Notes under the pieces: generated by a model
The model's database searches: none
Told to the model about the DNA's origin: nothing
Seen by the model: the letters and a program-made list of their open reading frames with translations, nothing else
Assembly: GCA_030595905.1 (NCBI GenBank)
Contig: JAUVLE010000002.1
Location: 1 to 49,439, forward strand
Source: Candidatus Cloacimonadota bacterium
GTDB taxonomy: Bacteria > Cloacimonadota > Cloacimonadia > Cloacimonadales > TCS61
Length of the DNA stretch: 49,439 nt
Reading direction: 5' to 3'
Shown here: one piece after another, positions 237-19,865 of the stretch
Position numbering within the stretch: position 1 is the first letter of the stretch
Layout: each line of letters begins with the position of its first letter
Position numbers and translations under genes: made by a program

Positions 237-596
237 ATGGGAAAAGTTGCACTTACATTAAACGGTTCTGAACCAAAAAACATTTATCCAGCTATGACGA
301 TCGCAGTATCTGCATTAGCCTGTGGAGATGAAGTCTTTATATTTGTTCTGCCCAGCGGATTACCGGTTTTTGTAGATGGAAAGATCGCAGAGCTTAACAA
401 AGCTGCACCGGCATTACCTGATCTTGAAGAGTTGTTTGAAGGCTATCAGGCACTTGGCGGACGCATTCTTGTCTGTGAATTGGGATTTGAGGTTCATGGT
501 TTAAAAGAAGAGGATCTGATAGAAGGCTGCGAAATAGTTGGAGCTACCACGTTTGTTGTCGAAGCTCAAGGTGCTCAATTAACATTATCATTTTAA
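237..596 (+). CDS. DsrE/DsrF-like (DsrE2-type) sulfur-relay family protein
   Basis: 119-aa ORF with AGGAGG upstream. Small Cys-containing alpha/beta protein (LACGDEV, VCELGFEV) resembling DsrE-family proteins. Directly followed by a tusA-like gene. Confidence 0.6.
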   Translation: MGKVALTLNGSEPKNIYPAMTIAVSALACGDEVFIFVLPSGLPVFVDGKIAELNKAAPALPDLEELFEGYQALGGRILVCELGFEVHGLKEEDLIEGCEIVGATTFVVEAQGAQLTLSF

Positions 597-617
597 AAAT
601 AAAAATAGGAGGAAATT

Positions 618-842
618 ATGGCTGTAAAAGAATTAGATTGCTTGGGAATGAAATGCCCGCAACCCATTCTTAAAGTTGTGGCATTAGTACCTACAATGGA
701 AGCTGGCGATATCCTGGAAGTAAAAGCAGATTGTCCGTCATTCCCTGTAGATATTAAAGCCTGGTGCGATAGAACAGGTAAAACATTGCTTTTTTGTATG
801 GATGACGGTTCGGGATCTCATTCCGCGCAAATCCAGTTTTAA
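618..842 (+). CDS. tusA: TusA-family sulfurtransferase
   Basis: 74 aa. LDCLGMKCPQPILK is the canonical TusA/SirA Cys-Pro-x-Pro active-site motif. AGGAGG RBS. Confidence 0.85.
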   Translation: MAVKELDCLGMKCPQPILKVVALVPTMEAGDILEVKADCPSFPVDIKAWCDRTGKTLLFCMDDGSGSHSAQIQF

Positions 843-850
843 TGATATAA

Positions 851-883
851 GGAGTGTTCTCTAAATTTGAACACTCCTTTTTT
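851..883 (+). terminator. Rho-independent terminator after tusA
   Basis: Perfect 9-bp stem GGAGTGTTC/GAACACTCC with a 9-nt loop, followed by TTTTTT. Confidence 0.75.
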
Positions 884-890
884 AGTTCTT

Positions 891-1022
891 AACTTCCGAA
901 TGTTTCAGCTTGCTGAATCTTCGGAATGTTGGCTCTAACTCAACAATCGGAAGAACTGAATCTTCGAAATGTTGGAGGTATTAAAACAATCGGAAGATCA
1001 GCAAGCTGAACATTCCGATGTT
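891..1022. repeat. Approx. 130-nt imperfect palindrome built from TTCGGAATGTT-like units
   Basis: Left arm CTTCCGAATGTTTCAGCTTGCTGAATCTTCGGAATGTT (893-931) pairs with right arm CAATCGGAAGATCAGCAAGCTGAACATTCCGATG (986-1020). An inner hairpin lies at about 940-975. Confidence 0.6.
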
Positions 1023-1042
1023 TAAATAACTAATGAGGATAG

Positions 1043-1471
1043 ATGGAAAAAGAAAATTTTAAACCTCAAATAGTTGGTTTCTTATGTAATTGGTGCACTT
1101 ATGCAGCAGCAGATCAGGCAGGAGCTTCCCGCAAGGAAATTGATTCTTCTCTGAATGTTGTACGCGTTATGTGTTCCAGCAGAATTGACCACAATTTATT
1201 ATTAAATACATATTTCAGCGGAGCAGACGGAATTCTGGTTGCTGGCTGACATCCAGGAGATTGTCATTACCAGGTTGGTAATTATTACGCAAGACGAAGA
1301 TTCGCCTTATTAAAAAAAGTATTTGAAACTCTGAATATCGATCCGGAAAGGATTCAGCTTTCCTGGATCTCTGCTTCAGAAGGAAAAAGATATATAGAAG
1401 TCGTGAACGAGTTTTCCGAAAAGATCAGGAAGCTCGGTCCGAATCCAATAAAATCGGATACTCATCTTTAA
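1043..1471 (+). CDS. mvhD: MvhD/FlxD-like [2Fe-2S] protein, selenocysteine-containing (TGA 1247-1249 read as Sec)
   Basis: The frame continues past the TGA as HPGDCHYQVGNYYARRRF...WISASEGKRY...KLGPNP to TAA 1469-1471. The full 142 codons are colinear with MvhD (FLCNWC...GADG.LV.G-C-HPGDCHY). The TGA replaces the conserved Cys. Confidence 0.8.
1266..1282 (+). promoter_or_regulatory. Candidate SECIS-like hairpin
   Basis: ATTACC-AGGTT-GGTAAT starts 16 nt after the UGA. The same stem is conserved downstream of the other two mvhD UGA codons. Confidence 0.35.
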
Positions 1472-1548
1472 TTCAATATATGAAAATAAAATCCATTAAT
1501 CGAAATAGATATTTTTTTGAAAAAAACAAAATCATTTAAGGAAATCAG

Positions 1549-2841
1549 ATGGATAATCCAGAAAATGTTTTAATTATCGGTTCCGGTGTGGCTGGAATGG
1601 AAGCAAGTTTGATGCTTTCTAAAGCTGGGAAGAAAGTATATCTCGTTGAAAATCTTCCCATAATTGGCGGGAAGATAATCAAGAATGAGGAATCATTTCC
1701 CAATATGGATTGCTCTACCTGCCTTGTTGCACCGATCCAGCAGGAGATACTTCAGGATGCAAATATTGAAGTTCTGACCTTGAGCACAGTGGAAAAAGTA
1801 ACCGGTAAACAGGGAGATTTCAAAGTTACTGTCAGGAAGAAAGCACGATATGTGAATTTGGAAGCCTGTCTTGGTTGTGGAATGTGTTATCCTGTCTGTC
1901 CGGTTGTACTTAAAAATGAATGGGAAGAAAATCTGATGGATAAAAAGGCAGTTTATGTTCCCTGTTCCGGCTCACTTCCCAATGTTCCTGTGGTCGACGC
2001 TTCTGAGTGTCTTTTTCTTAATGGAAAAGATAAAAGCTGTAATAAATGCGTGGAAGCCTGTATGTTCGGTGCAATGGATTTTTCCCAGAAAGATGAGGAA
2101 CTCAAACTCGATGTTACCGGAATAATCGTTGCCACAGGTTTTGAACTGTTCAATGTGCAGGAATTAGAAAATCTTGGTTACGGGAAATATCCCGGTGTTT
2201 ATACTGCATTTGAATTTGAACGGTTATTTGCTTCAAACGGTCCTACAGAAGGAAAGCTTTTTCTTCGTGATTCCGAAAAGACTCCGGACTCTGTTGCTAT
2301 CGTTCATTGCGTTGGCAGAGATGAAGTAGGATATTGCTCTAATATCTGCTGTATGTCTTCTTCAAAACACGCCCGTTTTATTAAACATAATCTGCACGAT
2401 GCAAAAATCTATAATATTTATTCTGATATTTGCCTGACGGATAAATCATATCAAAAATTCTATGATGAAACTAAATCACACGATTCGGAATTTATTTTCC
2501 AATCTGACAGAAAGAAGATGAACATTTCCAAAAAGGATGGGAAATTAGAAGTTTCCTATTTTAATGGAAAAGAAACGAAAGAATCGATCCTGGTTGAAAT
2601 GGTGATCCTGGCAAATGCTCTGCGACCTTCCGATACGATCGAAGAATTATCAAAAACATTAGAAATAAAACGTGACTCTTTTGGATTTATAGAAATCGAA
2701 CCTTCAAAGATCGGATCTGTGGAAACTTCCAGACCCGGAATTTTTGTAGCAGGATGCGCCGAAGGTCCAAAAGATATTCAGGGTTCAGTAATACAATCGG
2801 AAGCTGCAGTAGCAGAAATATTATCGATGCTTGATCGGTAA
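1549..2841 (+). CDS. hdrA: HdrA-like FAD/Fe-S oxidoreductase, first-module half
   Basis: GSGVAGMEASL dinucleotide motif, FPNMDCSTCLVAP, CLGCGMCYPVCP 4Fe-4S motif, C-terminal GIFVAGCAEGPKDIQ. Colinear with residues 1-430 of the long HdrA at 8231. Confidence 0.8.
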   Translation: MDNPENVLIIGSGVAGMEASLMLSKAGKKVYLVENLPIIGGKIIKNEESFPNMDCSTCLVAPIQQEILQDANIEVLTLSTVEKVTGKQGDFKVTVRKKARYVNLEACLGCGMCYPVCPVVLKNEWEENLMDKKAVYVPCSGSLPNVPVVDASECLFLNGKDKSCNKCVEACMFGAMDFSQKDEELKLDVTGIIVATGFELFNVQELENLGYGKYPGVYTAFEFERLFASNGPTEGKLFLRDSEKTPDSVAIVHCVGRDEVGYCSNICCMSSSKHARFIKHNLHDAKIYNIYSDICLTDKSYQKFYDETKSHDSEFIFQSDRKKMNISKKDGKLEVSYFNGKETKESILVEMVILANALRPSDTIEELSKTLEIKRDSFGFIEIEPSKIGSVETSRPGIFVAGCAEGPKDIQGSVIQSEAAVAEILSMLDR

Positions 2842-2931
2842 GCTGAGGGAAAAAAGATGAGTGAAATTGAATATCCCCGGAACAGTCGCAAGCTCCCTAC
2901 GGGGCAGGCAATATCGAACAAGGAATAATGA

Positions 2932-3312
2932 ATGTCGAAGGAAAGAAAATTTGATTTGCAGGATAGATTAATAGATTATGCAGTAAGGATTATTAAACTA
3001 TCTGAAGCTCTGCCGAATACAAAAACAGGTAATCACATACGATCTCAAATTTTAAAAAGCGAAACTTCTCCTGCTCCAAATTATGGAGAAGCCCAAAGTG
3101 CAGAATCAAAAGCAGATTTTATTCATAAGATGAAAATTGCGTTGAAAGAACTTCGGGAAACTGATGTTTGGTTAAAGATAATTATGCGAGCAAAGTTGAT
3201 TACTCCAAAAGAGAAACTTTCTCCATTAATCATTGAAACAGATGAATTAATTTCTATATTTGTAAAAAGTATTGAAACTGCTCGGAAAAATGATGAAAAT
3301 AATAAGAAATAG
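2932..3312 (+). CDS. Four-helix-bundle protein (23S rRNA intervening-sequence protein / Avd family)
   Basis: 126 aa. Family signature FDLQDRLIDYAVRII...SQILKSETSPAPNYGEAQSAESKADFIHKMKIALKELRETDVWL. Confidence 0.8.
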   Translation: MSKERKFDLQDRLIDYAVRIIKLSEALPNTKTGNHIRSQILKSETSPAPNYGEAQSAESKADFIHKMKIALKELRETDVWLKIIMRAKLITPKEKLSPLIIETDELISIFVKSIETARKNDENNKK

Positions 3313-3320
3313 ATACTTCG

Positions 3321-3570
3321 ATTCAGAAAAGAAGATGAATATCGAATATCCAACCCCAGTGTAATAAAAGAAAAAGAAGATTTCACGGGGCAGGCAAGGA
3401 ATAATGAATGATGAATGAAGGGAAGAATAACTTCGGACTTCGAGATTCCTTTTTCATCATTGGAAATTCAGAAAAGAAGATGAATATCGAACACGGAATG
3501 ATGAATGATGAAGAAAGGAAGAATAACTTCCGACTTGGAGATTCCTTGTTCATCATTGGAGATTCAGATA
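3321..3570. repeat. Two tandem ORF-less hairpin units of the cassette
   Basis: Perfect 26-nt direct repeat ATTCAGAAAAGAAGATGAATATCGAA at 3321-3346 and 3466-3491. Each unit folds via AATGATGAA/TTCATCATT arms. Confidence 0.75.
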
Positions 3571-3630
3571 GACTTGTGTATACATTGAATTTAGCCGATT
3601 AAGGAAATGTATAGAAACTAAGGAAATGAT

Positions 3631-5280
3631 ATGAGTGAAAAAATAGGAATTTATGTTTGTGAATGTGGTCCGAACATTGCTTCAAAAGTTGATATTGAAA
3701 AGATAATGGATGAAATTTCTAAACTTGAGGATTTCAAAGATAAAGAACTTGTAATAAAAAACCACAAACTTCTTTGTTCAAACGAAGGAAAAGAATTTTT
3801 GGAAAAAGAGATCAATGAGAACAAATTAACTCATCTTGTTTGTGCTGCCTGCTCACCGCGGGATCACGACACAACTTTCATAAATGTCTGCAAGAAAACG
3901 CAGTTAAATCCGTATTTATATAGGATTGTGAATATTCGTGAACATTGTGCCTGGATAATTCCCGATAAAGAGGAAGCGACCAGGAAAGCAATTCAATATA
4001 TTCACGCAGGAATGAACCGCGTTTTATACCAGGATTCGCTTTTTGAAAAGGAATTGGACAGCAATCCGGATGTCCTGGTTATCGGTGGTGGAATTGCCGG
4101 AATGGAAGCAGCACTGAATCTTGCAGGTGAAAAGAGAAAAGTTTTCCTGATAGAAAAAGAAGAAAACCTTAGTGGGAAAGCTGTATTTCTGCCGGAACAA
4201 AAGATCTCTGATGTTCAAAAAAATAAGAATATAAAAGTTTTCACAAAAACGGTTCTGGATAAACTTATCGGTTTTATGGGGAATTTTGAGGTTGTGTTGA
4301 AGAGCACCGAAAACCCGGATGAAACAACGGAATTGTTAGCCGGAGCGGTTGTAGTTGCAACCGGATACGAATTTTTCGATTCAAAGAAACTTCCTGAATT
4401 TGAATTTGAAGATAAAGATGATGTTATTAATTCTCTGGAAGCTGAAAGAATGTTTTCGGAAAATAAAAAGATAACTCTCAAAAATGGAAAAGAACCGAAA
4501 ACTGTTACTCTGGTTCATTGTGTTGGCAGGAAAGAAGTTGGATTTTGCAGTAAGATATGCTGTGATTATATGCTCAAAATTTCAAATTATCTTAAAGAGC
4601 AATCATCGAGTATCAAAATAACTCATCTCATCAAATATTTGAATCTTCCCTATAAGAACAGTCAGAATTTTTATAATAAGATAAAGGAAAAAGGTGTTGA
4701 ATTCATTCGTTATTCCGATCTTTCTGTGAATGGCACGAAGGTGGAATACACCGATATAAATGATAAAAAAGGTAAGCTTGAAAGCGATCTTGTGATTTTG
4801 GCTCCTGCAATGATAGCTTCAAAAGGTTCCCAAGAACTTGCGGAATTGCTGAATATCGATCTTCACGAAACAGGTTATTTCCAGGAGGTTCATCAGAAGA
4901 TAAACCCGGTTTCATCCACAACTGACGGGATTTTCATAATCGGTTCTGCACGCGGACCGGCAAACATTATCGATGCAATGCAGCAGGCAAAAGCAGCTAC
5001 AGGTAAGATCTTCACGCAATTGATTCCCGGGGAAAAGATCATTCCCGAAGTTATGGTCTCTGAGATCCTGGAGGCATATTGCACAGGTTGTCAGACCTGT
5101 TTGCAGGTTTGTGGATACGATGCGATTTATTTTGATGACGAACGAGGAATATCCGTTGTGAATGAAGCGGTTTGCAGAGGTTGTGGAAATTGCGTGGGAA
5201 GTTGTCCTTCCGGTTCCATCCGAACGAAACATTTTACAAATCCGCAACTTTACCAGGAAGTGAAGGAAGCGATTAGATGA
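3631..5280 (+). CDS. hdrA: HdrA-like protein, second-module half with C-terminal 2x[4Fe-4S] ferredoxin domain
   Basis: IGIYVCECGPNI...ACSPRDHD...NIREHCAW, GGGIAGMEAAL, C-terminal CTGCQTCLQVC/CRGCGNCVGSCP. Colinear with the second half of the long HdrA. Confidence 0.8.
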   Translation: MSEKIGIYVCECGPNIASKVDIEKIMDEISKLEDFKDKELVIKNHKLLCSNEGKEFLEKEINENKLTHLVCAACSPRDHDTTFINVCKKTQLNPYLYRIVNIREHCAWIIPDKEEATRKAIQYIHAGMNRVLYQDSLFEKELDSNPDVLVIGGGIAGMEAALNLAGEKRKVFLIEKEENLSGKAVFLPEQKISDVQKNKNIKVFTKTVLDKLIGFMGNFEVVLKSTENPDETTELLAGAVVVATGYEFFDSKKLPEFEFEDKDDVINSLEAERMFSENKKITLKNGKEPKTVTLVHCVGRKEVGFCSKICCDYMLKISNYLKEQSSSIKITHLIKYLNLPYKNSQNFYNKIKEKGVEFIRYSDLSVNGTKVEYTDINDKKGKLESDLVILAPAMIASKGSQELAELLNIDLHETGYFQEVHQKINPVSSTTDGIFIIGSARGPANIIDAMQQAKAATGKIFTQLIPGEKIIPEVMVSEILEAYCTGCQTCLQVCGYDAIYFDDERGISVVNEAVCRGCGNCVGSCPSGSIRTKHFTNPQLYQEVKEAIR

Positions 5281-5306
5281 AATTCCAAATTACAAAGTTT
5301 TTATTT

Positions 5307-5375
5307 CACCACCGAGAACACCGAGTAACACCGAATAATTTAGTCTTTTTTCGGTGAATTTCAGTGTTTTCGGTG
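5307..5375. repeat. Solo palindromic element of the CACCGAGAACACCGA family
   Basis: CACCACCGAGAACACCGAGTAACACCGAA pairs with TTCGGTGAATTTCAGTGTTTTCGGTG. Related arms at 16431-16457 and 16596-16616. Confidence 0.7.
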
Positions 5376-5432
5376 TTTAATTAATTTACGAAGTTATGTT
5401 CTTATTTGTGATTTTAAATAAGGGGAGAATTA

Positions 5433-6584
5433 ATGACGAAAGTTTCTAATAAAGGAACAAAACTGACATCAGAGAAAGTTCGCAAAGAAATACAGCAGTT
5501 TTTCAAGGATGCGATGGAATCGAAACTTATCGATGCTGTGATGATGCCGATGCAGGTTCCTTCCAAAGATTCTTATGCCTGGATTTTGATAAAAGATATA
5601 GCTCTTTTGGAAGATATGAATCCGATAGCTCCGATTATGCCAATCAATGCTGCCAATGCTCTGAAAAGATACACCCGAAAAGGTAAAGGAAAATTTAAGA
5701 TCGCAGTCCTGATGAGACCTTGTGAAATTCGAGCAACTATCGAACTTACAAAATTGAAACAGGTAGAACCGGAAGATGTGATTTTATTCAGTTATGATTG
5801 TATCGGTGCGCTTCCGATGCAGGATTATATTGCAGATCCGGAAAATAATGAAAAGAAATTCGATAAGATTTTTGCAGAAAATAATTGGAATTCCGAAGAT
5901 TTGAAACCTGTCTGCAATATCTGTGATAAATTTTCTTTATCTGCCGGCGATGTGCATTTTGGTTTGAAAGATGATGAAATAATAATTTTTTCCAATAGCG
6001 AAAAAGGTGAAAAACTGCTTTCTGAAAATAAAATCGAAGATAAAAAAGATGATAAAATCTGGGCAGAAAAAATCGATATTATAAAAAAAGAGAAAACAAA
6101 AAACAGGCAAAACTCATTCAAAGAAATAAAAAAAATGACGGATGGTTTCACGAATCTGCAGGATACTTTTGCACACTGCATCGGATGTCATAATTGCGGA
6201 ACTGTTTGTCCGATCTGTTACTGCCGCCAATGCTATTTTGATTCGTCCGTTTCAAAACCGAATTCCGATATTAAGTTGATCCGTGCAGAAAATAAAGGAG
6301 CGCTGGCATTTCCGCTCGATCGTTTGATGTTCCATATCGGCAGAATGTCTCATATGAGTCTTTCCTGCGTTTCCTGTGGATTATGTTCGGATGCCTGTCC
6401 TGTGGATATTCCCGTAGCGAATATTTTCAGTTATATGGCAAGTGAAACTCAAAAAACTTTTGAATATTCTGCAGGAGAAAGTGTTGGTGATGCACTTCCA
6501 ATGCGAGATTACAAACTTGATGAACTGGGAGAGCTTGGAAAATTAGTGAAAAGTGCTGAAGCCGGGGAGAGCAAAAATGAGTAA
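5433..6584 (+). CDS. FlxC/HydB(AsrA)-like iron-sulfur protein
   Basis: CIGCHNCGTVCPICYC and CVSCGLCSDACPVDIP cluster motifs. N-terminal RPCEIRA segment as in sulfhydrogenase-beta/FlxBC-type proteins. Confidence 0.6.
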   Translation: MTKVSNKGTKLTSEKVRKEIQQFFKDAMESKLIDAVMMPMQVPSKDSYAWILIKDIALLEDMNPIAPIMPINAANALKRYTRKGKGKFKIAVLMRPCEIRATIELTKLKQVEPEDVILFSYDCIGALPMQDYIADPENNEKKFDKIFAENNWNSEDLKPVCNICDKFSLSAGDVHFGLKDDEIIIFSNSEKGEKLLSENKIEDKKDDKIWAEKIDIIKKEKTKNRQNSFKEIKKMTDGFTNLQDTFAHCIGCHNCGTVCPICYCRQCYFDSSVSKPNSDIKLIRAENKGALAFPLDRLMFHIGRMSHMSLSCVSCGLCSDACPVDIPVANIFSYMASETQKTFEYSAGESVGDALPMRDYKLDELGELGKLVKSAEAGESKNE

Positions 6585-7671: not shown

Positions 7672-7770
7672 GATGATGAAAATTGAATATTTAATATTGA
7701 ATATTGAAAATTTAGCTCCGTGTTCTCTTTGGTAATATTTTTCGTGTAAATTCGTGTAAATTCGTGGTTT
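7672..7770. repeat. Intergenic repeat: AATTGAATAT-type left end plus tandem TTCGTGTAAA units
   Basis: AAATTGAATATTTAATATTGAATATTGAAAAT, then TTCGTGTAAA TTCGTGTAAA TTCGTGGTTT at 7741-7770. Confidence 0.6.
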
Positions 7771-7786
7771 CAGAAAAAGGATAATT

Positions 7787-12165: not shown

Positions 12166-12183
12166 TAAAAAAGGAATGTAAAT

Positions 12184-12609
12184 ATGAAAGATTGGCAGCC
12201 AAAAATTCTGGCAATATTGTGTAACTGGTGTTCTTATGCCGGAGCAGACCTGGCAGGAGTTTCCAGGATGCAATATCCGCCAAATGTGCGTGTGATAAGG
12301 ATTCCCTGTTCCGGAAGAGTCGATCCGTTATTTATAATGAAAACGCTGCAAAGCGGGTTCGACGGTCTTCTAGTTTCCGGCTGACATCCAGGCGATTGCC
12401 ATTACCTGTCAGGTAATTTTATCGCCCGTAGACGGTATTCTACGATTAAACCGCTTCTTGAAATGATCGGGATCGAACCGGAAAGAGTCCAGTTTTCCTG
12501 GATCTCTGCCGGAGAAGGTGAACGCTTTGCCAATATCATCGAAAAGATAACAAACGATGTTAAGAAGATCGGTCCTGCAAAAAGGTTGGTAAAGGGAGCA
12601 AAGCAATGA
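12184..12609 (+). CDS. mvhD: MvhD/FlxD-like protein, selenocysteine-containing (TGA 12382-12384)
   Basis: The frame continues [17 protein letters not shown]...[10 protein letters not shown] to TGA 12607-12609, which overlaps ATG 12606 of the next gene. Confidence 0.8.
12401..12417 (+). promoter_or_regulatory. Candidate SECIS-like hairpin
   Basis: ATTACC-TGTCA-GGTAAT. The stem is conserved while the loop differs from the other two copies. Confidence 0.35.
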
Positions 12610-13571
12610 TCCAGAACCTGAGAACAGAAGTAAAGAAACTCCTGAAAGATAAAAAAGTGGATATTGTTATCGGTTGGGAAAAAGGTTCTCTTCCGCTTTC
12701 CTCCACACCGCTTTTTATTCATAAAGAAGAAGATGTTGATAGACTTATTTTCGATGAAACCTGCAGAAATAATCTTACAACTTATCTCACAAAAGATAAA
12801 AGAAAACTTGGAAAAACTTATGATAAGGTCGGAATCATTGTAAAAGGCTGCGATGCTCGTTCAATCGTTCTTTACTCGATTGAGCAGCAAATCAAAAGAG
12901 AGAATATCGTTATTATCGGAGTTCCCTGTAACGGTGTTCTGGAAAAGAAGAAAATTCTTCAGAAAACAGAAAATGAAGAAATTCTGGAATTAAAGATAGA
13001 TGGAAAAAATGTGCATTTAAAAGGTCGTGATTTCGATCTGTCAATTCCTTTGAATGAAGTTCTTTGTGATTCCTGTTTAACCTGTCGCTATCCTGATGCT
13101 CCGGTTCACGATATTTTTATTGGAAAACCTCGCAAAGAAATTGATATAAAAGACGAATATAAAAAAGTAACAGATTTTGAAAAAAAATCTTCCGAAGAAC
13201 GTTGGGAATATATCAAAGAAGAATATTCAAAGTGCATTCGCTGTTATGCCTGCAGAAATGTGTGTCCTGCCTGTTATTGCAACGAGTGTTTTGTAGACCA
13301 GAACGATCCTCAATGGATCGGCAAAACTCCTGAAGTCACCGACTCCATCATTTTCCATCTCATCAGGAATCTTCACGTTGCCGGAAGATGCGTGGATTGT
13401 GGAGCTTGTGTTTCCGCTTGTCCGGTCGACCTCGATCTGCGTATTATGAATAAAAAAGTGGAAAAAGAGATCAAAGAACGATTTGATTATACTGCAGGAT
13501 TGGATATCAATGAAAAACCGGCGATGGCAAGCTATTGTGAAAATGAAAAACAAGATTTTATAATGGGTTAG
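12606..13571 (+). CDS. FlxC-like iron-sulfur protein
   Basis: KGCDARSIV, CIRCYACRNVCPACYC, CVDCGACVSACPVDLD. Positioned between an mvhD/flxD-like gene and a FlxB-like gene. Confidence 0.6.
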   Translation: MIQNLRTEVKKLLKDKKVDIVIGWEKGSLPLSSTPLFIHKEEDVDRLIFDETCRNNLTTYLTKDKRKLGKTYDKVGIIVKGCDARSIVLYSIEQQIKRENIVIIGVPCNGVLEKKKILQKTENEEILELKIDGKNVHLKGRDFDLSIPLNEVLCDSCLTCRYPDAPVHDIFIGKPRKEIDIKDEYKKVTDFEKKSSEERWEYIKEEYSKCIRCYACRNVCPACYCNECFVDQNDPQWIGKTPEVTDSIIFHLIRNLHVAGRCVDCGACVSACPVDLDLRIMNKKVEKEIKERFDYTAGLDINEKPAMASYCENEKQDFIMG

Positions 13572-13574
13572 AAT

Positions 13575-13714
13575 ATGATCAAAATAACAAAAACCGAACC
13601 TCTACTCGTTACTAAGCCCCAGCTTAGTAACGCTCGTTTTTGCATTCCCAAGCAGGGGCTTGGGAACGAGAAATTGTCGGGCTTTGGGAACGAGAGTAAT
13701 TTGTGGGATTTATT
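13575..13714. repeat. Hairpin-pair element inserted at the start of the downstream gene
   Basis: Perfect 11-bp stem CGTTACTAAGC/GCTTAGTAACG (13607-13632). A 9-bp stem TTCCCAAGC/GCTTGGGAA (13645-13666). Direct repeat of TTGGGAACGAG. Confidence 0.75.
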
Positions 13715-14746
13715 ATGATTAAAATAAAGAAAAGCGAATTTAGTGAATTTATAAAAAATCTTCAAAAGAATTATAGTGTTTTTGCTCCTGTTACTGACGG
13801 GAAAGCAACAGCTTTCAAAAAGATCAAATCTGCCGATGATATCAATAATAAAATATTGAACACAAAGAGATCACCCAAAGAAATATTCTTCCCGCAATCG
13901 GAAGTTCTTTTCCAATATACGGAAAGAGGAATGGAAGTTCCAAAAAGAGAGGAAAAACCTTTTGCCATCTGGGGAATGAGGAACTGCGATACAAAAAGTC
14001 TTCTGATGTTGGATAATGTTTTTGGTGAAGCACATCAAATGCCGAAAAAAGATATGTATAAAGACCCATATTGGAAGGAAAAATATGATAACTGTCTTGT
14101 TTTCAATCTTGCCTGCAATGAGCCGCTTTCCACCTGTTTCTGCAACTGGTTCGGTGGCGGTCCTTTCGATAAAACAGGTTCCGATATCTTTGTAGTGGAA
14201 ACTGATGATAGTTACATCTTTGAAGCTGTGAGCGATAAAGGAAAGAAATTCCTGAAAGAGTTTAAAACAGCTGAGGAAATATCAGATAAAGAAATCAAAA
14301 AAATTGAAAAATTAAAAGAAACAGCCGAATCTTATCTCGCAGAAAAACAAGATGTCTCATCACTTTTTTCTAAAACAAAAGAAATCTGGGATGAACCGAT
14401 CTGGGATGAGATCGCAGCAAAATGCGTTAATTGCGGAGCTTGTGCTTTTGTATGTCCCACCTGCCACTGCTTCGATGTTTCTGACGAAGGAAAGGGAAAT
14501 AAAGGAAAACGCATTCGCCTCTGGGATTCCTGTATGTTCGCTATCTTCACAAAAGAAGCATCAGGGCACAATCCGCGCAGCCAATCCACTCAACGCGTAC
14601 GGCAAAGAGTAATGCATAAATACAATTATTTTATGGATAATTATGATGAACATCTCTGCACAGGCTGTGGAAGGTGCGTGGTTGTTTGTCCGGTAAATCT
14701 GGATATTCGAGAAGTCATTAAGAAAATATTGGATTATAAAAAATGA
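13715..14746 (+). CDS. FlxB / sulfhydrogenase-beta (HydB) / AsrA-like 4Fe-4S protein
   Basis: CVNCGACAFVCPTCHCFD and CTGCGRCVVVCPVNLD. ATG 13715 (MIKIKKSEF) is preferred over the GTG at 13703. Confidence 0.7.
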   Translation: MIKIKKSEFSEFIKNLQKNYSVFAPVTDGKATAFKKIKSADDINNKILNTKRSPKEIFFPQSEVLFQYTERGMEVPKREEKPFAIWGMRNCDTKSLLMLDNVFGEAHQMPKKDMYKDPYWKEKYDNCLVFNLACNEPLSTCFCNWFGGGPFDKTGSDIFVVETDDSYIFEAVSDKGKKFLKEFKTAEEISDKEIKKIEKLKETAESYLAEKQDVSSLFSKTKEIWDEPIWDEIAAKCVNCGACAFVCPTCHCFDVSDEGKGNKGKRIRLWDSCMFAIFTKEASGHNPRSQSTQRVRQRVMHKYNYFMDNYDEHLCTGCGRCVVVCPVNLDIREVIKKILDYKK

Positions 14747-14753
14747 GGAATAA

Positions 14754-15578
14754 ATGAAAAATACATATATTCCATTTCAGATGAAGGTGAAAAAGATCTA
14801 TACAGAGAGTCCTGATAGAACATTAAAGACCTTTGATCTGTCATATATTAATGAAGAAGATAAATTTGATTTTTTACCGGGTCAATTCTGTGAATTTTCC
14901 ATTTTAGGAAAAGGTGAATCACCTTTCGGGATCGCTTCTTCTCCCACAGAAGAAGATATTCTCAAGTTCACGGTAAACCGCACCGGTTCTGTTACGAACG
15001 AAATTCATTATCTTCAGGAAGGGGATATTGTAGGAATTCGAGGACCTCTCGGAAACTGGTATCCGGTTGAGAAGTTCAAAGGACAGGATGTAGTGATAAT
15101 CGGTGGTGGATTTGCCTTCACAACATTACGTTCGCTTCTTGTTTATATGCTGGAAAATCGTAAAGATTACGGCAAGATAACTGTGATTTACGGTGCCCGG
15201 AATCCCGATCTTTTCATTTATAAAGATGAAATAAAAGAGTGGGAAAAACGCGATGATCTCACATTGCATCTTACAATTGATAATCCGGTTAAAGGTTGGA
15301 ATAAACTTACGGGATTTGTGCCAACAGTAACCAAAGAGGTTTCTTTCGATCCAACTTCCTGGTGTGTTGTGTGCGGACCTCCGATAATGATAAAATACAC
15401 CCTTCCTGTTCTTACCGAAATTGGTTTTCCCGATGAGAAGATTTATACTTCCCTTGAAAGGCGAATGAAATGTGGAATCGGGAAATGCGGCAGATGTAAT
15501 ATTGGCTCAAAATATATTTGTATCGATGGACCGGTGTTTTCTTATGAAGAGATAAAAAAAATTCCGGAAGCATTGTAA
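14754..15578 (+). CDS. FlxA / sulfhydrogenase-gamma (HydG) / AsrB-like FAD-NAD(P)-binding protein with a [2Fe-2S] tail
   Basis: PGQFCEF..SPFGIAS, IIGGGFAFTTL, VCGPPIMIK, C-terminal CGIGKCGRCNIG..C. Confidence 0.75.
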   Translation: MKNTYIPFQMKVKKIYTESPDRTLKTFDLSYINEEDKFDFLPGQFCEFSILGKGESPFGIASSPTEEDILKFTVNRTGSVTNEIHYLQEGDIVGIRGPLGNWYPVEKFKGQDVVIIGGGFAFTTLRSLLVYMLENRKDYGKITVIYGARNPDLFIYKDEIKEWEKRDDLTLHLTIDNPVKGWNKLTGFVPTVTKEVSFDPTSWCVVCGPPIMIKYTLPVLTEIGFPDEKIYTSLERRMKCGIGKCGRCNIGSKYICIDGPVFSYEEIKKIPEAL

Positions 15579-15900
15579 AATTGAATATTGAAAAATGAAT
15601 ATGGAAAATGGAAAATGAATATTCGGGACACGGATAATGTGGATTTTCACGGATTGGACTCGACTTCAAAGCGACCTGTCTTGGCGAAACGAAGTGAAGA
15701 CAAAAGCGCGGAGTTAAGAACAATACATGAGTTCTCTCAAGAGGAGATTACACACCTCCCGACTAAAGTCGGACTCCTCTCAAGAGGAGATTTTCTCAGT
15801 GCTCTCCGCCTATCCGGCGTATCCGGCAGTTGCCGGAGAAGACTGGTGAACTTGGTGGTTAAGAAGTTAGTTTTGTTCGTTTTTGTTCGTTGCTAATATA
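15579..15900. repeat. Composite intergenic repeat region
   Basis: AATTGAATATTG left end. 47-nt double hairpin at 15751-15797. GC hairpin CCGGCAGTTGCCGG. Terminal GTTCGTTGC at 15885-15893. Confidence 0.75.
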
Positions 15901-15916
15901 AGATAAGGAGAAATAA

Positions 15917-16393
15917 ATGGCTAAAGATAAAATTATATTAAGTGAAATGGATGCCAATTTTAAGAATGAGATCGCATCTATGCCTGGAGCAGAACATTTT
16001 CAAAGATGTTTCACTTGCGGCACCTGCACTGCCGCTTGTCCTGTTGCAGAAGTTCACGAAGATTATGATCCGCGAAAAATAATTAGAATGTGCATTCTGG
16101 GGATGAAAAAGGAGGTATTATCGTCTGACCTTCTATGGATGTGTTCAAGATGTTATACCTGCTATGCACTTTGTCCGCAGGGAGTTAAGTTTTCTGATGT
16201 TATCGATGTTCTGCGTGATATGGCTATCAAAGAAGGTTATGTTCCCAAAGAGCGTTATCAAGAAGCAAGAGAACTGGATAAATTTGTTCAGGAATTACGC
16301 TGCGAATTGATCAATCAGAAATTGCATCCGGATAATAAATTAGATGATAAAATTAAAACTAAGCTGGATAAAGAGATAAAAGTAAAATGGTAG
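15917..16393 (+). CDS. hdrC: HdrC-like 2x[4Fe-4S] protein
   Basis: CFTCGTCTAACP ... WMCSRCYTCYALCP spacing typical of heterodisulfide reductase subunit C. Confidence 0.7.
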   Translation: MAKDKIILSEMDANFKNEIASMPGAEHFQRCFTCGTCTAACPVAEVHEDYDPRKIIRMCILGMKKEVLSSDLLWMCSRCYTCYALCPQGVKFSDVIDVLRDMAIKEGYVPKERYQEARELDKFVQELRCELINQKLHPDNKLDDKIKTKLDKEIKVKW

Positions 16394-16430
16394 AAGATAG
16401 AACATGGATAATGCGGATAAAAAAAATAAA

Positions 16431-16684
16431 CACCGAAAACACCGAGAAACACCGAAAAATGAATATCGAATTTCGAACCCCAGTGAAATAAAAGAAAAAG
16501 AAGATTTCACGGGGCAGGCAAGGAATGATGAATGATGAAGGGAAACACACACCTCCCGGCTAAAGCCGGACTCCTCTCAAGAGGAGATTTTCTCTGTATT
16601 CTTAGTGTTTTCGGTGGTTATTATTTTGTTTGTATTGTTAGTTTTGCCTGCCACGACGAAGCAGAGCGAAGGCGGGTTCGTTGC
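16431..16684. repeat. Nested composite of four repeat families
   Basis: Outer CACCGAAAACACCGAG/CTTAGTGTTTTCGGTG arms enclose the ATGAATATCGAA...ACGGGGCAGGCAAGGAATGATGAATG block (16459-16541) and the 47-nt double hairpin (16548-16594). The 48-nt GC-hairpin repeat follows (16637-16684). Confidence 0.8.
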
Positions 16685-16718
16685 AAAAAAATAAAACCAA
16701 ATAAAAAAGGAGGTTAAA

Positions 16719-16946
16719 ATGCAAGTAGATCAAACTTTAGATTGCAAAGGGCTTTCCTGCCCGATGCCGATCATTAAGTTAGCCAAAACGGTCAAGAAAA
16801 TGAACAGTGGTGAAGTTTTGGAACTTATGGGAACCGATCCCGGTTCTAAAACCGATGTTCCTGCGTGGTGCGAAAAAACAGGCAACATTTTTCTTGATCA
16901 GAAAGAAGAAGGTGGCGCATTCATTTTTTACATCAAAAAGAAGTAA
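16719..16946 (+). CDS. tusA: TusA-family sulfurtransferase
   Basis: LDCKGLSCPMPIIK CPxP motif. Immediately upstream of a YeeE/YedE-type permease. Confidence 0.85.
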   Translation: MQVDQTLDCKGLSCPMPIIKLAKTVKKMNSGEVLELMGTDPGSKTDVPAWCEKTGNIFLDQKEEGGAFIFYIKKK

Positions 16947-16959
16947 AAAGGAGTGAACA

Positions 16960-18177
16960 GTGTTTAAAAAAGGAGTTTTAAAAGAATTATTCGATGGTTT
17001 GTTCGGTAAAACCTGGCCTATGTGGGTTGGTGGGATTTTGCTGGCAGTATTGAATATTCTTCTTTTCGTAATTAAATACCCCTGGGGTGGTAGCGGAGGC
17101 TATATTAATATTGGTCAGAACCTTTTCCAGACTCTCGGAGCAAAAAGTCTCGGAACAGGCACACCGATTAGTCTGCACACAGTTGCATTACTGAATATCT
17201 TCATCGTCCTTGGAGCGTTTATTTCATCTTTGTTTTCCAAAGAATTCAGTATTAAAGTAGCTCCAATTGGGGAACTCGTTAAAGGTCTTATTGGTGGTGC
17301 ATTGATGGGAATTGGTGCAACTGTAGGGATTGGTTGTACTATAGGAGGTTTCTTTTCTGGAGTTCCCGCACTTTCCGGAGGAGCTTTGTTCCTTTCTCTT
17401 GGATTTATGCTGGGAACTTTTGTAGCTCTCAGATATCTTCTTTGGGAGATGGAAGCACTTCCCAAAATCAGTATGGGAAAATCTTGCACATTAATTCCGG
17501 GAACCGGTAAAAAAACAGGTTGGCAAAGATGGCTCGGCTGGATCCTTATTGCTGTTGTGTTGTATATCTTTAGTAATTATACAGCCAAGGGAACAGCTCT
17601 TTCAAAAATTCTCGGCTGGCACATATTTATTGCACTTATTCTTGGAATAATCCTGCAAAGATCACGTTATTGTATTACTCGTGCTTTTAGAGAACCGTTT
17701 ATGACAGGTGAAGCAACGGCTCCGGTGGCAATAATTATCAGCGTTCTGGTTGTTCTTATCGGTTTTACTGTTCTTAAGTTTTTTGGTGTAGGAAATGCCG
17801 GAGAAACTGCAGTTCGAGCCATTGAAATGAAATCTGTTTATGCTAACTTCTGGTTAAGAGCTTTAATTGGCGGATTCATATTTGGCTTGGGAATGACCGT
17901 TGCAGGTGGCTGTGCAGTTGGAACACTCTGGCGTGCAGGAGAAGGTCATGTAAAACTATGGATGTCCGCACTTGGATTCACGATTATGGCACCTATTTCC
18001 AAGACATTCATTGTTCCATGGATTACAAAAATCATTCCAGAATCTCTGCGCAGTAAATTGTTTCTACCCGATGTTTTAGGTTATACCGGTGCAGTGGTTC
18101 TCATCCTGGTAATACTTCTGCTGTGGTATATGTTCGTGAAATGGAATGAAAAAACCGGAAAATTTTCCGCATTATAA
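16960..18177 (+). CDS. yeeE: YeeE/YedE-family sulfur-compound (thiosulfate-type) transporter
   Basis: Polytopic membrane protein with two repeated halves, each carrying GxGCxxG-type motifs (GIGCTIGG, AGGCAVGT). GTG start 6 nt after AAAGGAG. Confidence 0.7.
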   Translation: MFKKGVLKELFDGLFGKTWPMWVGGILLAVLNILLFVIKYPWGGSGGYINIGQNLFQTLGAKSLGTGTPISLHTVALLNIFIVLGAFISSLFSKEFSIKVAPIGELVKGLIGGALMGIGATVGIGCTIGGFFSGVPALSGGALFLSLGFMLGTFVALRYLLWEMEALPKISMGKSCTLIPGTGKKTGWQRWLGWILIAVVLYIFSNYTAKGTALSKILGWHIFIALILGIILQRSRYCITRAFREPFMTGEATAPVAIIISVLVVLIGFTVLKFFGVGNAGETAVRAIEMKSVYANFWLRALIGGFIFGLGMTVAGGCAVGTLWRAGEGHVKLWMSALGFTIMAPISKTFIVPWITKIIPESLRSKLFLPDVLGYTGAVVLILVILLLWYMFVKWNEKTGKFSAL

Positions 18178-18190
18178 AAAAGGAGGAGAA

Positions 18191-18730
18191 ATGAAAAAAA
18201 TAAATTATCTGATTATTCTTTCTGCGATCCTTCTTCTTGTCTCAAGTTGCGGAAAAGGATTTTCTGAAGGCGGATATTTTGCCAATGCAAAAGCAATGGT
18301 GAATGAAGCCAGAAAAGGCATCGAAGAAATTTCTTATGATGAATTGATCCGGAAAATGAAAAGTGGTGAATCAAAGTTCATAATAGATGTTCGAGAACCG
18401 GGTGAATTTGCAGAAGGATACATAAATCAGCCGGATGAAAACGACAAAAAAGAATATCCCGATGTAGTGACGAAAAACATTCCAAGGGGTTTATTGGAAT
18501 TTAAAATAGCCGATATAACTTTTTGGAAAAATCGCAAAAATATGCCGTCTAAAGATGATGAAATAATTATCTATTGTAAAAAAGGCGGAAGAGGAGCTTT
18601 AGCCACGGAAACCTTGATGAAACTTGGCTATAAAAATGTTCAAAACCTGAAAGGCGGTTATAAAAAATGGCTTAATCCAAATGCTTCAGAGGAAGATGAT
18701 ACTCCTGCAGAATCAGGCGGATGCGGCTAA
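18191..18730 (+). CDS. Rhodanese-domain lipoprotein
   Basis: Lipobox LLVSSC. Rhodanese active-site loop CKKGGRG. AGGAGG RBS before ATG 18191; a start at 18146 would overlap yeeE. Confidence 0.75.
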   Translation: MKKINYLIILSAILLLVSSCGKGFSEGGYFANAKAMVNEARKGIEEISYDELIRKMKSGESKFIIDVREPGEFAEGYINQPDENDKKEYPDVVTKNIPRGLLEFKIADITFWKNRKNMPSKDDEIIIYCKKGGRGALATETLMKLGYKNVQNLKGGYKKWLNPNASEEDDTPAESGGCG

Positions 18731-18749
18731 AAAAAAGGAGAAAAACATA

Positions 18750-18912
18750 GCAACTAACCCGAAACATATTTAAAAGAAGTTTCAATTAAGAAATTAAATA
18801 TGATGGGCAGGCAAGAACTAACATAACGAACTAAGAAAAATAAATTGTTTATCTTGTTCGTATTGCTTGTCGTGGCGTATCCGGCAACTGCCGGAGGAGA
18901 CTGGTTCGTTGC
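18750..18912. repeat. Degenerate IVS-like element copy
   Basis: GCAACTAACCC...GATGGGCAGGCAAG...CCGGCAACTGCCGG hairpin...GTTCGTTGC (18904-18912). Confidence 0.55.
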
Positions 18913-18929
18913 ATAAAAGGAGAAAATAG

Positions 18930-19865
18930 ATGAAAAAAAAATGGATGAAAAACTTAATAGTACTATCTATTATAGTTTTAGTCTTTGCAGGTTGTGCAAA
19001 AAAGAATGATCTTGATACATTATTAACTTACATGGATAGCAATGGAATGACAGTAAAAGAACTGTTCGATGGATGGATCATAAAAGCAGAAGATGTTCAC
19101 GATAACATGGCAAATTATTACTTAATGGATCTTCGTGGAAAAGATAAGAACAAAAACGAAATTATCGATTATGATGACGGTCATATTGCCGGAGCTGTTT
19201 TAACTTCTTTCTCTACAATTCTTAACGATGCTGAGAAAGCGGGAGAAAAAACGATCGTGGTTATATGCTACACAGGACAAACAGCCGGCCATGCTGTAAT
19301 GGCACTCAGACTTTCCGGATATGACGATGCTAAAGTACTTAAATGGGGTATGAGCGGATGGAACGGCGATTTTGATATATGGACAAAAAATTGCGGTCAA
19401 ATTGAAAGTGAAAACTGGGTTGCTGAACCTGTGGCAGAAAATATTGCATTTAAGTATATTCAACTGGAATGTGATGCAACGGAAGGTAAGGAAATGCTTA
19501 CCGAACGCGTTGGCGTTATGCTGAATGGCGGGTTTAAAGGAATAGGTGCGGACAAAGTTCTTAATAATCCTGCAAATTATTTTGTTAATAATTATTGGGG
19601 TGAAGAAGATGTTGATAAATATGGACACATCGACACTGCTTACAGGATAAAACCATTAGATGTACAAAATATAGGTTCTGATAAAACCATTGTAACTTAT
19701 TGCTGGACAGGACAGACTTCTTCTATGGTTACAGCTTATCTAACTGTTCTTGGTTATGATGCAGCAAGTCTTAAATATGGCGTGAACAGCATCATTTATG
19801 ATATGCTTGAATCTCATAAATGGGCTGCTTCAAAAGATTATGATTACGAAGTAACAGAAAAGTAA
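18930..19865 (+). CDS. Tandem-rhodanese-domain lipoprotein
   Basis: Lipobox VFAGC. Two rhodanese loops: CYTGQTAG and CWTGQTSS. Confidence 0.7.
   Translation: MKKKWMKNLIVLSIIVLVFAGCAKKNDLDTLLTYMDSNGMTVKELFDGWIIKAEDVHDNMANYYLMDLRGKDKNKNEIIDYDDGHIAGAVLTSFSTILNDAEKAGEKTIVVICYTGQTAGHAVMALRLSGYDDAKVLKWGMSGWNGDFDIWTKNCGQIESENWVAEPVAENIAFKYIQLECDATEGKEMLTERVGVMLNGGFKGIGADKVLNNPANYFVNNYWGEEDVDKYGHIDTAYRIKPLDVQNIGSDKTIVTYCWTGQTSSMVTAYLTVLGYDAASLKYGVNSIIYDMLESHKWAASKDYDYEVTEK

Follow-up and report, generated by a model that had tools for sequence, protein, structure and literature searches.

What does a relay for sulfane sulfur do among genes for HdrA-type flavoproteins that have no HdrB beside them? 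We asked this of a gene cluster at positions 237-19865 of a 49,439-nucleotide (nt) stretch of DNA from a Candidatus Cloacimonadota bacterium (contig JAUVLE010000002.1, assembly GCA_030595905.1). The whole stretch, positions 1-49,439, is called the window. The best homologues of the cluster's proteins are from Candidatus Cloacimonadota. An earlier annotation of the window (the original prediction) had described ~20 kb of co-oriented genes that combine three mvhD plus hdrA-type units, in which mvhD encodes selenocysteine (Sec), with FlxC/FlxB/FlxA-like subunits and persulfide-trafficking genes. We identified the genes by Pfam, NCBIfam and Protein Data Bank (PDB) sequence searches (Table 1), and Pfam bore out this gene content. 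Our tentative reading is that the region is a conserved, operon-like cluster in which a multi-module HdrA/MvhD system for flavin-based electron bifurcation or confurcation is coupled with a relay for sulfane sulfur, from import to carrier proteins.

Linkage of the sulfur relay to the HdrA/MvhD core

We found that the cluster is a single co-directional unit. Every long open reading frame (ORF) in the region is on the forward strand and the intergenic gaps are short throughout (21 nt from dsrE to tusA and 200 nt from tusA to mvhD). We take dsrE to be the first gene because the genes 5' of dsrE are divergently oriented in a close relative (L013; compared loci are given as L numbers). A hairpin after the second rhodanese gene closes the cluster and is the strongest terminator-like site within positions 1-20000. 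A promoter scan of the sequence gave fewer sites than shuffled sequences and was not used.

The linkage is conserved. A scan of one genome per species with an alignment of the FdhB-like proteins of the cluster gave 225 relatives, from which we kept 80 loci. These were compared to the window proteins by tblastn, and the neighbourhoods of homologues were also inspected. The core mvhD-hdrA'-hdrA''-two FdhB-like genes-mvhD was present in every locus that was not truncated. Fifty-three loci had at least 900 nt of upstream sequence and were informative about the genes 5' of the core. In 39 of these, tusA was located within 1.5 kb upstream of the core, mostly together with dsrE (dsrE was also present in 30 of 49 loci in a first count). 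The remaining informative loci were either of a paralogous type (6 loci) or of neither type (8 loci). TusA-linked loci were found in Cloacimonadota, Delongbacteria, Neomarinimicrobiota, Latescibacterota, Eisenbacteria, Krumholzibacteriota and unclassified bacteria, and in Thermoplasmatales archaea. A block of tusA, yeeE and rhodanese genes, commonly extended by a porin gene and one more rhodanese gene, lies either 5' of dsrE or 3' of the HdrC-like gene, depending on the lineage, and is always attached to the cluster. The original prediction had proposed neighbourhood analysis as a check on this linkage, and the linkage held. Because it is kept across phyla, gene order is strong evidence that the sulfur-relay genes are functionally tied to the HdrA/MvhD modules.

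The relay proteins look functional, judging from their motifs. The rhodaneses have lipoboxes and intact active-site loops, CPxP is present in TusA, and a single Cys of the DsrE-like protein is invariant (Cys80, the only such Cys among 19 homologues). Pfam matches and lipoboxes thus support the whole predicted set of one dsrE-like gene, two tusA, yeeE and two exported rhodanese lipoproteins. The best PDB matches of the DsrE-like protein are weak (3mc3_A, DsrE3A, E = 0.008; 2qs7_A, DsrE2B, E = 0.03). YeeE has an adjacent TusA-like partner and falls outside the curated TsuA/YeeE families (117 bits against a cut-off of 350 for the NCBIfam YedE/FdhT model; 105 and 78 bits against 400 and 645 for TsuA models).

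Small ArsR-type regulators of 86-96 amino acids (aa) with two conserved Cys (in ECNV and VCYK) are encoded in relatives, at L006 158-430, L007 5225-5515, L070 5430-5690 and at least nine more loci. Their genes directly precede dsrE or tusA-yeeE or, where tusA is missing, mvhD, and it is possible that they sense sulfane sulfur. No such gene was seen in the window, which begins 236 nt 5' of dsrE.

Composition of the core and the Flx-like module

The three predicted mvhD plus hdrA-type units all have a Sec-type mvhD; beyond this they are unlike in layout. The first has a split hdrA (hdrA' and hdrA''), the second a fused hdrA'A'', and the third flxC/B/A-like genes and an HdrC-like gene that the original prediction had missed.

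We found that HdrA' and HdrA'' cover different parts of methanogen HdrA. HdrA' aligns in a single stretch to residues 141-556 and is without the N- and C-terminal HdrA domains. HdrA'' aligns to residues 12-243 and 317-653 and skips residues 244-316, the inserted ferredoxin domain. Because the two alignments complement each other, the pair carries one copy of each methanogen HdrA domain. We did not find a canonical full-length HdrA, in which a single chain has the N-terminal, flavin, inserted ferredoxin and C-terminal ferredoxin domains; here they are spread over HdrA' and HdrA''. Sixteen Cys of HdrA' are conserved in all locus types, and the DCSxC motif is kept in HdrA' and missing from HdrA''. 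Both proteins score far below the cut-offs of the NCBIfam HdrA models (HdrA' matched HdrA2 with E = 5.5e-116). Their matches to bifurcating methanogen HdrA (1e-80 to 7e-90) are much better than those to the sHdrA of sulfur oxidisers (6tjr_A, 1e-23 to 9e-26). From these alignments we infer that split HdrA'/HdrA'', served by two MvhD and two FdhB-like proteins, form a pseudo-dimeric bifurcating core.

The fused hdrA of the second unit is one ORF of 1011-1017 aa in relatives. Here it has lost one G near position 10855 (within 10850-10860; GATGGAATG has become GATG-AATG) that is present in all relatives, and the deletion splits the gene into ORFs 8231-10879 and 10858-11277 in different frames. Either the sequence is in error here, or the frameshift is real and inactivating.

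All three mvhD genes, by their sequence, have the features of bacterial selenoprotein MvhD, that is, an in-frame UGA aligned with Cys of homologues and a downstream stem-loop. Read-through of the TGA gives G-U-HPGDCHY and a full-length FlpD domain in each case. An identical 7-bp hairpin lies 19 nt 3' of each TGA (3/3), with one compensatory pair, both bases of which differ in the third copy. Across the related loci, the codon at the Sec position of mvhD is TGA in 31 and TGT or TGC in 47. Folding z-scores of the 60-nt stretches 3' of each UGA were not significant. There was no curated match to a Sec insertion sequence (SECIS) or a riboswitch in the window (Rfam, gathering thresholds), so the putative SECIS assignment rests on the shared hairpin and the compensatory pair. 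The predicted Sec decoding is thereby confirmed, yet it is not new, since Sec-containing MvhD is a known selenoprotein family.

The three proteins that had been called FlxC-like are, by alignment, full-length homologues of the FdhB/FrhB family. The family profile matches the FdhB of Fdh-Hdr complexes over 347 of 387 positions (9t1s_M, 3.7e-52), with a deletion of ~22 residues relative to FdhB in the alignment, and the motifs CxxCxxCxxxCPxCxCxxC and SCxxCGxCxxxCP are common to both. No gene for the molybdopterin protein FdhA was found by Pfam in 237-19865, and the FdhB-like proteins are without an FdhA partner. In solved Fdh-Hdr complexes FdhB is positioned on the MvhD electron-input side.

The other Flx assignments of the original prediction stand by domain content, in the order D-C-B-A. 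FlxA, FlxB/FlxC and FlxD (the MvhD homologue) are encoded together at 12184-15578, by domain architecture alone. The FlxB-like protein matches the NCBIfam models AsrA (2.6e-52) and ShyB (2.4e-48), each below its cut-off, and the HydG/AsrB-type matches of the FlxA-like protein are below theirs. From its domains, the FlxA-like protein is the likely entry point of NAD(P)H. The HdrC-like protein matches residues 13-112 of HdrC, the N-terminal cluster-binding part; the C-terminal part is unaligned. It scores 99 bits against a cut-off of 160 for TIGR03290 and 76 bits against 300 for the NCBIfam qmoC model.

HdrB is absent from the window and present in relatives

A six-frame scan of ORFs of at least 60 aa found no CCG-domain pattern in the window, and the only CCG tripeptide is in a NuoE-like protein at nt 21864. 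Pfam likewise found no match to the CCG, DsrC or lipoyl/GcvH-type families in any window ORF scanned. The window therefore has no HdrB, as had been predicted, and with it none of the two-CCG, non-cubane [4Fe-4S] sites that reduce disulfides in canonical HdrABC. Most TusA-linked loci also have no CCG protein within ~10 kb.

Genuine HdrB is encoded in the relatives. A second, paralogous locus is present in 8 of 9 metagenome-assembled genomes (MAGs) of close relatives (91-95% identity in the FdhB-like protein). In L041, this locus has the order POR-hdrC-hdrB-hdrA-mvhD-mvhD-hdrA'-hdrA''-two FdhB-like genes-Fe-S protein-fumarate-reductase-type flavoprotein, and no tusA or dsrE. Its hdrB has the CCG domain in two stretches (Pfam, 7e-18) and its hdrA is canonical (650 aa). 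The layout hdrC-CCG-hdrA was likewise found in L047, L050, L053 and L057 (tblastn and CCG pattern), and hdrC-hdrB(CCG)-hdrA-mvhD was seen wherever the 5' side of the second locus was recovered. Because the closest MAGs carry hdrCBA at this second locus, a canonical HdrB is very probably encoded elsewhere in the source genome. In another Cloacimonadota locus (L017), dsrE-tusA and the core are followed directly by hdrC-hdrB (CCG, 2e-17), so chemistry of the thiol/disulfide type is attached to the core in at least one relative.

These loci bear on two further points of the original prediction. It had proposed that FlxC-like proteins replace HdrB. This no longer holds, because these full-length FdhB homologues co-occur with genuine HdrB in L017 and in loci of the L041 type. 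It had also named a canonical hdrBC elsewhere as evidence that would count against its view, and this was partly found, at the second locus in close relatives. The site that cleaves the S-S bond, not being an HdrB of the window, may be HdrB from the second locus or an Fe-S or flavin site of the complex.

In the second locus (L041 1-15000, MAG CAYWJN01; also L047, L050, L053 and L057), a paralogous Cys-type core lies beside a 2-oxoacid:ferredoxin oxidoreductase, hdrCBA-mvhD and a fumarate-reductase/succinate-dehydrogenase-type flavoprotein. With this locus, these genomes may have an Hdr system linked to a thiol:fumarate reductase.

CCG patterns were also seen 5' of dsrE in L039 and L044. In L070 (1907-5405), arsR-dsrE-tusA-core is closely preceded by four genes, for a GlcD-like FAD oxidase, a Fe-S/CCG protein like GlcF/HdrD, a di-ferredoxin and one additional MvhD. 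This suggests that a GlcD/GlcF-like unit is a lactate- or glycolate-type input module for an electron hub in some lineages.

A possible function in sulfur reduction

Our results are perhaps best accommodated by the notion that the HdrA system uses NAD(P)H to reduce sulfane sulfur bound to its carriers and reduces ferredoxin in the process, a proposal that we put forward with some reserve. Outside the cytoplasm, the two exported rhodanese lipoproteins would take up sulfane sulfur, be it from polysulfide, thiosulfate or S0, and YeeE would move it over the inner membrane to TusA-2. As a cysteine persulfide on TusA and the DsrE-like protein, the sulfur would then reach the cytoplasmic complex. There, the carrier persulfide would be the high-potential electron acceptor and the sulfur would leave as H2S. 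Electrons would pass from NAD(P)H to FlxA, FlxB, FlxC (FdhB-like), MvhD and the HdrA flavin, the exergonic reduction of sulfur would pay for the reduction of ferredoxin, and the downstream Mbh/Mrp [NiFe] hydrogenase would re-oxidise the reduced ferredoxin. As far as TusA, this scheme draws on established knowledge of rhodaneses, YeeE and TusA (Tanaka et al. 2020, as cited in PMC8542988; PMC11094781). We infer the rest: that sulfane sulfur is the substrate and is handed to the Hdr-type complex, that the reaction is a reduction, which path the electrons take and which site cleaves the S-S bond.

Several findings weigh against this proposal. A CCG search left no site in the window that can be named as reducing an S-S bond or a persulfide. 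YeeE, FlxA, FlxB and the HdrC-like protein are all under the cut-offs of curated NCBIfam families. Of the informative loci, eight have no dsrE-tusA directly 5' of the core; they belong to Fermentibacteria, Aegiribacteria, Sabulitectum and part of the Neomarinimicrobiota. Most of the eight have no sulfur-relay gene within ~6-10 kb; L067 retains a nearby tusA-yeeE-rhodanese block. In Fermentibacteria, Aegiribacteria and Sabulitectum, the core, the fused HdrA, the Flx genes and the HdrC-like gene are kept with no sulfur-relay gene within reach. We compared HdrA', HdrA'' and both FdhB-like proteins of 39 TusA-linked and 14 other loci and found no TusA-specific Cys; every conserved Cys is common to all groups. 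The paralogous core of close relatives adjoins hdrCBA, POR and a fumarate-reductase-type flavoprotein rather than TusA, and the core in itself is therefore not specific to sulfur. In the literature, we found no biochemical or genetic study of the cluster, and its sole mention, a MAG-level note (PMC8542988), reads the same linkage as oxidative.

Our results might also indicate that the core is a general redox hub that balances NAD(P)H, ferredoxin and H2 next to a separate system for acquiring sulfur. The high-potential partner would then be unrelated to TusA, for example a thiol heterodisulfide of a canonical HdrABC with a thiol:fumarate-reductase-like enzyme elsewhere, and the DsrE, TusA, YeeE and rhodanese proteins would serve assimilation, supply of Fe-S or thio-cofactors, or sensing, and be merely co-regulated. 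This would account for the cores without any nearby sulfur gene in Fermentibacteria and Aegiribacteria, for those beside POR-hdrCBA and an FAD_binding_2 flavoprotein (the paralogous loci of close relatives) or beside a GlcD/GlcF-like unit (L070), and for the lack of TusA-specific Cys in the core proteins. The ArsR-type regulators, which go with the core whether tusA is there or not, also fit. Co-regulation alone, however, hardly explains why dsrE-tusA heads the co-directional unit in 39 of 53 loci of bacteria and archaea, with gaps as short as those in the window. Organisms of sulfidic habitats would presumably also need no route of outer rhodanese, porin and YeeE merely for assimilation. We consider the hub somewhat unlikely.

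A more specific alternative is that TusA and the DsrE-like protein form a DsrC-like couple (a protein heterodisulfide, persulfide or trisulfide) that is reduced at an HdrB supplied in trans. HdrB would be encoded in cis in some relatives and at the second locus in this lineage, and would dock via the HdrC-like protein. L017 has just such an order (dsrE-tusA-core-hdrC-hdrB), the MAGs nearest the window have hdrC-hdrB-hdrA-mvhD at a second locus, and an orphan HdrC-like gene is kept at the end of the window's Flx module. In contrast, the HdrB of the second locus lies within its own full hdrCBA-mvhD set, with its own HdrC, and no CCG protein is within reach in 32 of 36 TusA-linked loci. The HdrC-like protein aligns just to the N-terminal cluster-binding part of HdrC, and it is the C-terminal part of HdrC that contacts HdrB. 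On balance this couple is distinctly improbable.

Sulfur oxidation has been proposed for related genes. In MAGs of Ca. Stygibacter and Ca. Tenebribacter, Williams et al. 2021 (PMC8542988) reported Hdr genes in a cluster with genes for TusA, a rhodanese with a signal peptide and a transporter of sulfur. By analogy to sHdr, the Hdr-like system would oxidise thiosulfate or sulfane sulfur and provide reductant for CO2 fixation. The sHdr clusters are also accompanied by sets of TusA, DsrE and rhodanese (PMC11094781). The gene content of the cluster gives no support to this reading, which we think should be corrected: the defining sHdr parts, the CCG proteins HdrB1/B2 and the lipoate-binding LbpA, are missing among the window ORFs scanned, and the HdrA proteins are far closer to the MvhD-coupled bifurcating type than to sHdrA. 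An NAD(P)H module is attached to the cluster as well, and the group-4 Mbh/Mrp-type hydrogenase encoded downstream belongs to a class that usually evolves H2. Oxidation is therefore very unlikely.

That YeeE/YedE, the TusA/YedF-like proteins and the rhodaneses supply selenium to the three Sec-type MvhD is scarcely credible, and we rejected it: the cluster does encode three selenoproteins, among NCBIfam models YeeE matches the YedE/FdhT selenium model best, and YedF is among the matches of TusA-1 (all far below cut-offs), but YeeE blocks are found equally often with clusters of the Cys type and of the Sec type (9 versus 10 loci), and dsrE-tusA heads Cys-type clusters too, in Marinimicrobia, Krumholzibacteriota and Thermoplasmatales.

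Comparison with known systems

The cluster resembles methanogen HdrABC-MvhAGD and Fdh-Hdr complexes (PDB 5ODC, 7BKB, 8RVU, 9T1S) in its HdrA flavin domains with CxGxR..YCSxxCC, the Sec/Cys variation of MvhD, an FdhB-type subunit and an HdrC-like di-cluster protein. It differs in that HdrA is split or fused as two complementary half-proteins, HdrB is absent from the window, the FdhB-like proteins have neither a hydrogenase nor an FdhA partner, and sulfur-carrier genes head the operon. To our knowledge, the host organisms make no coenzyme M or coenzyme B.

The FlxABCD-HdrABC system of Desulfovibrio, which Ramos and co-workers reportedly described in 2015, shares with the cluster an FlxA-type NAD(P)H/FAD/[2Fe-2S] protein, HydB-like Fe-S proteins, an MvhD-type FlxD and adjacent Hdr-type genes. 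The likeness is one of domain architecture, and the FlxC of the cluster is FdhB-like. Unlike in Desulfovibrio, the order is D-C-B-A, HdrB is missing, HdrC is shortened and the HdrA partner is the fused double HdrA; this gene and the HdrC-like gene are adjacent in place of a complete hdrABC.

In the sHdr-LbpA system (PMC11094781; PMC6067878), TusA, a DsrE-family carrier and rhodaneses are tied genetically to an Hdr-type complex, as they are here, and TusA and DsrE3 proteins deliver sulfur to that complex (PMC11094781). The cluster, however, contains no shdrC1B1AHC2B2 (or B3) set with CCG proteins, no second HdrC pair and, among the window ORFs scanned, no LbpA. Its HdrA is of the MvhD-coupled, ferredoxin-domain type, its DsrE-like protein is only distantly related to DsrE3A and DsrE2B, and its hosts are fermentative anaerobes.

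Adjacent tusA-yeeE genes, with dsrE beside them in L001, L026 and L030, are like the YeeE/YeeD system of thiosulfate uptake (TsuA/TsuB; Tanaka et al. 2020, as cited in PMC8542988) and like the YedE-TusA-DsrE (YTD) clusters that are found in sulfur disproportionators (PMC13490349). In contrast to these, the YeeE of the window is far below the TsuA and YedE cut-offs, the extra conserved YTD proteins are absent, and the genes are embedded in an Hdr/Flx cluster with exported rhodaneses. In subunit make-up the cluster is also like QmoABC of sulfate reducers, in which two differing HdrA-derived flavoproteins act together with no HdrB and an HdrC-like module is present. The cluster is without a membrane QmoC (the qmoC score given above) and an AprAB context, and its MvhD is separate, not fused. 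We rejected membership in the sHdr, QmoABC and YTD groups since each lacks a defining part here.

HdrA modules without HdrB are a recognised theme, for example the "HdrAC2" complex (quoted in PMC13490349, citing Appel et al. 2021). The original prediction had taken the wiring to be uncharacterised. We found no study of its architecture or function; the linkage itself was already reported (PMC8542988), and TusA and DsrE are already known to feed an Hdr-like complex in sHdr.

Other features of the cluster and neighbouring genes

The features of the cluster are listed in Table 1.

Table 1. Features of the cluster, with positions in the window and the matches or motifs that identify them (values are E-values)
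Feature	Position	Strand	Evidence and remarks
DsrE-like carrier, 119 aa, first gene of the cluster	237-596	+	Pfam PF13686 1e-11, PF02635 2e-6
TusA-1	618-842	+	CPxP motif (KCPQP); Pfam TusA 1.9e-16; 21 nt 3' of dsrE
MvhD-1 (FlpD family), selenoprotein	1043-1471	+	UGA 1247-1249; Pfam FlpD 1.4e-48
HdrA' (TrxR-like flavin domain and inserted ferredoxin domain)	1549-2841	+	8rvv_A 1.2e-80
23S-rRNA-IVP family four-helix protein, insertion outside the system	2932-3312	+	Pfam PF05635 2.3e-15
HdrA'' (N-terminal Fe-S, flavin, C-terminal 2x[4Fe-4S] ferredoxin)	3631-5280	+	8rvu_a 7e-90
FdhB-like Fe-S protein 1 ("FlxC-like")	5433-6584	+	15 invariant Cys; 9t1s_M 3.7e-52, 8rvu_E 3.2e-46
FdhB-like Fe-S protein 2	6577-7671	+	34% identical to protein 1, equal Cys pattern; Pfam FrhB_FdhB_C 2.8e-7
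MvhD-2, selenoprotein	7787-8212	+	UGA 7988-7990; Pfam FlpD 1.3e-48
Fused double HdrA (HdrA'-HdrA''), ~1016 aa	8231-11277	+	same pair fused; interrupted by 1-nt deletion near 10855
SAM (S-adenosylmethionine)-dependent methyltransferase, lineage-specific insertion	11360-12067	+	Pfam Methyltransf_31 1.7e-18
MvhD-3 (FlxD equivalent), selenoprotein	12184-12609	+	UGA 12382-12384; Pfam FlpD 9e-54
FlxC-like, third and shorter FdhB-like paralogue	12606-13571	+	all 15 invariant Cys of the 383-aa family, 24% identity
FlxB-like (HydB/AsrA-type Fe-S protein)	13703-14746	+	Pfam Fer4_22 3.9e-34
FlxA-like (HydG/AsrB/PyrK-type, FAD/NAD(P)H/[2Fe-2S])	14754-15578	+	Pfam NAD_binding_1, FAD_binding_6, DHODB_Fe-S_bind
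HdrC-like di-[4Fe-4S] protein, 158 aa, without HdrB partner in the window	15917-16393	+	PDB HdrC 8rvv_C 2.8e-22
TusA-2, YeeE partner	16719-16946	+	SCPMP motif; Pfam TusA 1.3e-26; 13 nt 5' of yeeE
YeeE/YedE-family inner-membrane sulfur-compound transporter	16960-18177	+	Pfam Sulf_transp 9.5e-50
Exported single-domain rhodanese lipoprotein	18146-18730	+	Pfam Rhodanese 1.7e-17; lipobox LVSSC; loop CKKGGR; likely start 18191
Exported two-domain rhodanese lipoprotein	18930-19865	+	Pfam Rhodanese 7.6e-18; lipobox VFAGC; loops CYTGQT, CWTGQT
Terminator-like hairpin	19881-19910	+	13-bp stem, 6 G-C pairs, T tail; closes the cluster after the second rhodanese

Two genes are insertions. The gene for the IVP-family four-helix bundle occupies varying intergenic sites of the cluster in L008, L010, L013, L014, L019-L021 and L027, like a small mobile insertion. 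The methyltransferase gene was found among the compared loci in L012 and L014 only. Dispersed intergenic repeats of 86-94% identity pair 3332-3415 with 16456-16539, 12111-12190 with 16630-16709, 15750-15805 with 16547-16602, 15816-15847 with 18874-18905, and 3417-3472 with 3513-3568; some of these contain small hairpins with a T run behind. We rejected ORFs 3408-3602, 15588-15896 and 16532-16717 as genes, since their sequences are such repeats in translation. No Rfam family matched at gathering thresholds and ARAGORN found no tRNA. Loci in MAGs labelled "Armatimonadota bacterium" (L008, L013, L049, L053) are 92-95% identical to this Cloacimonadota cluster, and the labels are probably wrong.

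The genes 3' of the cluster encode an FrhB-like protein, NuoE- and NuoF-like proteins, a fusion of a NuoG N-terminus to a double HdrA, a second FlxB/FlxA pair and an Mbh/Mrp-type group-4 [NiFe] hydrogenase. The NuoE-like protein (21096-21983) has an N-terminal FAD/NAD-binding Rossmann stub that is longer in L017 (14189-15457). NuoF and accessory genes of the CBS/HATPase, DRTGG and PHP kinds come next, as around NuoEF modules of the bifurcating-hydrogenase type. The 1090-aa fusion (27720-30992) joins a NuoG-like N-terminus ([2Fe-2S] and [4Fe-4S]) to a double HdrA and is the window's third HdrA'A''-type unit; the second FlxB/FlxA pair lies after it, at 31231-33059. The hydrogenase genes (33654-43525) include a large subunit (35465-36667) with intact Ni-Fe motifs, RICGICSTSH and DPCYCC, and a gene for a HycI protease. 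This hydrogenase is genuinely of the ferredoxin type and is the likely ferredoxin sink for the upstream modules.

Implications

The carriers of the cluster are abundant uncultured organisms of sulfidic waters, sediments and anaerobic digesters, and models usually treat them as simple fermenters or syntrophs. A conserved tie of sulfur import and carriage to bifurcating HdrA machinery would put them into cryptic sulfur cycling, and carrier-bound sulfur would extend the short list of high-potential acceptors in flavin-based electron bifurcation. The cluster would also offer a purifiable target for learning how Hdr-type enzymes work without HdrB. A bolder possibility, which we regard as unlikely, is that the HdrB-independent complex of HdrA'/HdrA'', MvhD and FdhB-like proteins is an unrecognised class of cytoplasmic, energy-conserving sulfur reductase that reduces the TusA/DsrE persulfide and bifurcates electrons from NAD(P)H to ferredoxin. 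If this were true, Cloacimonadota, Marinimicrobia, Delongbacteria, Latescibacterota and Thermoplasmatales would gain energy from zero-valent sulfur unseen, and these fermenters would produce sulfide in anoxic waters, sediments and digesters.

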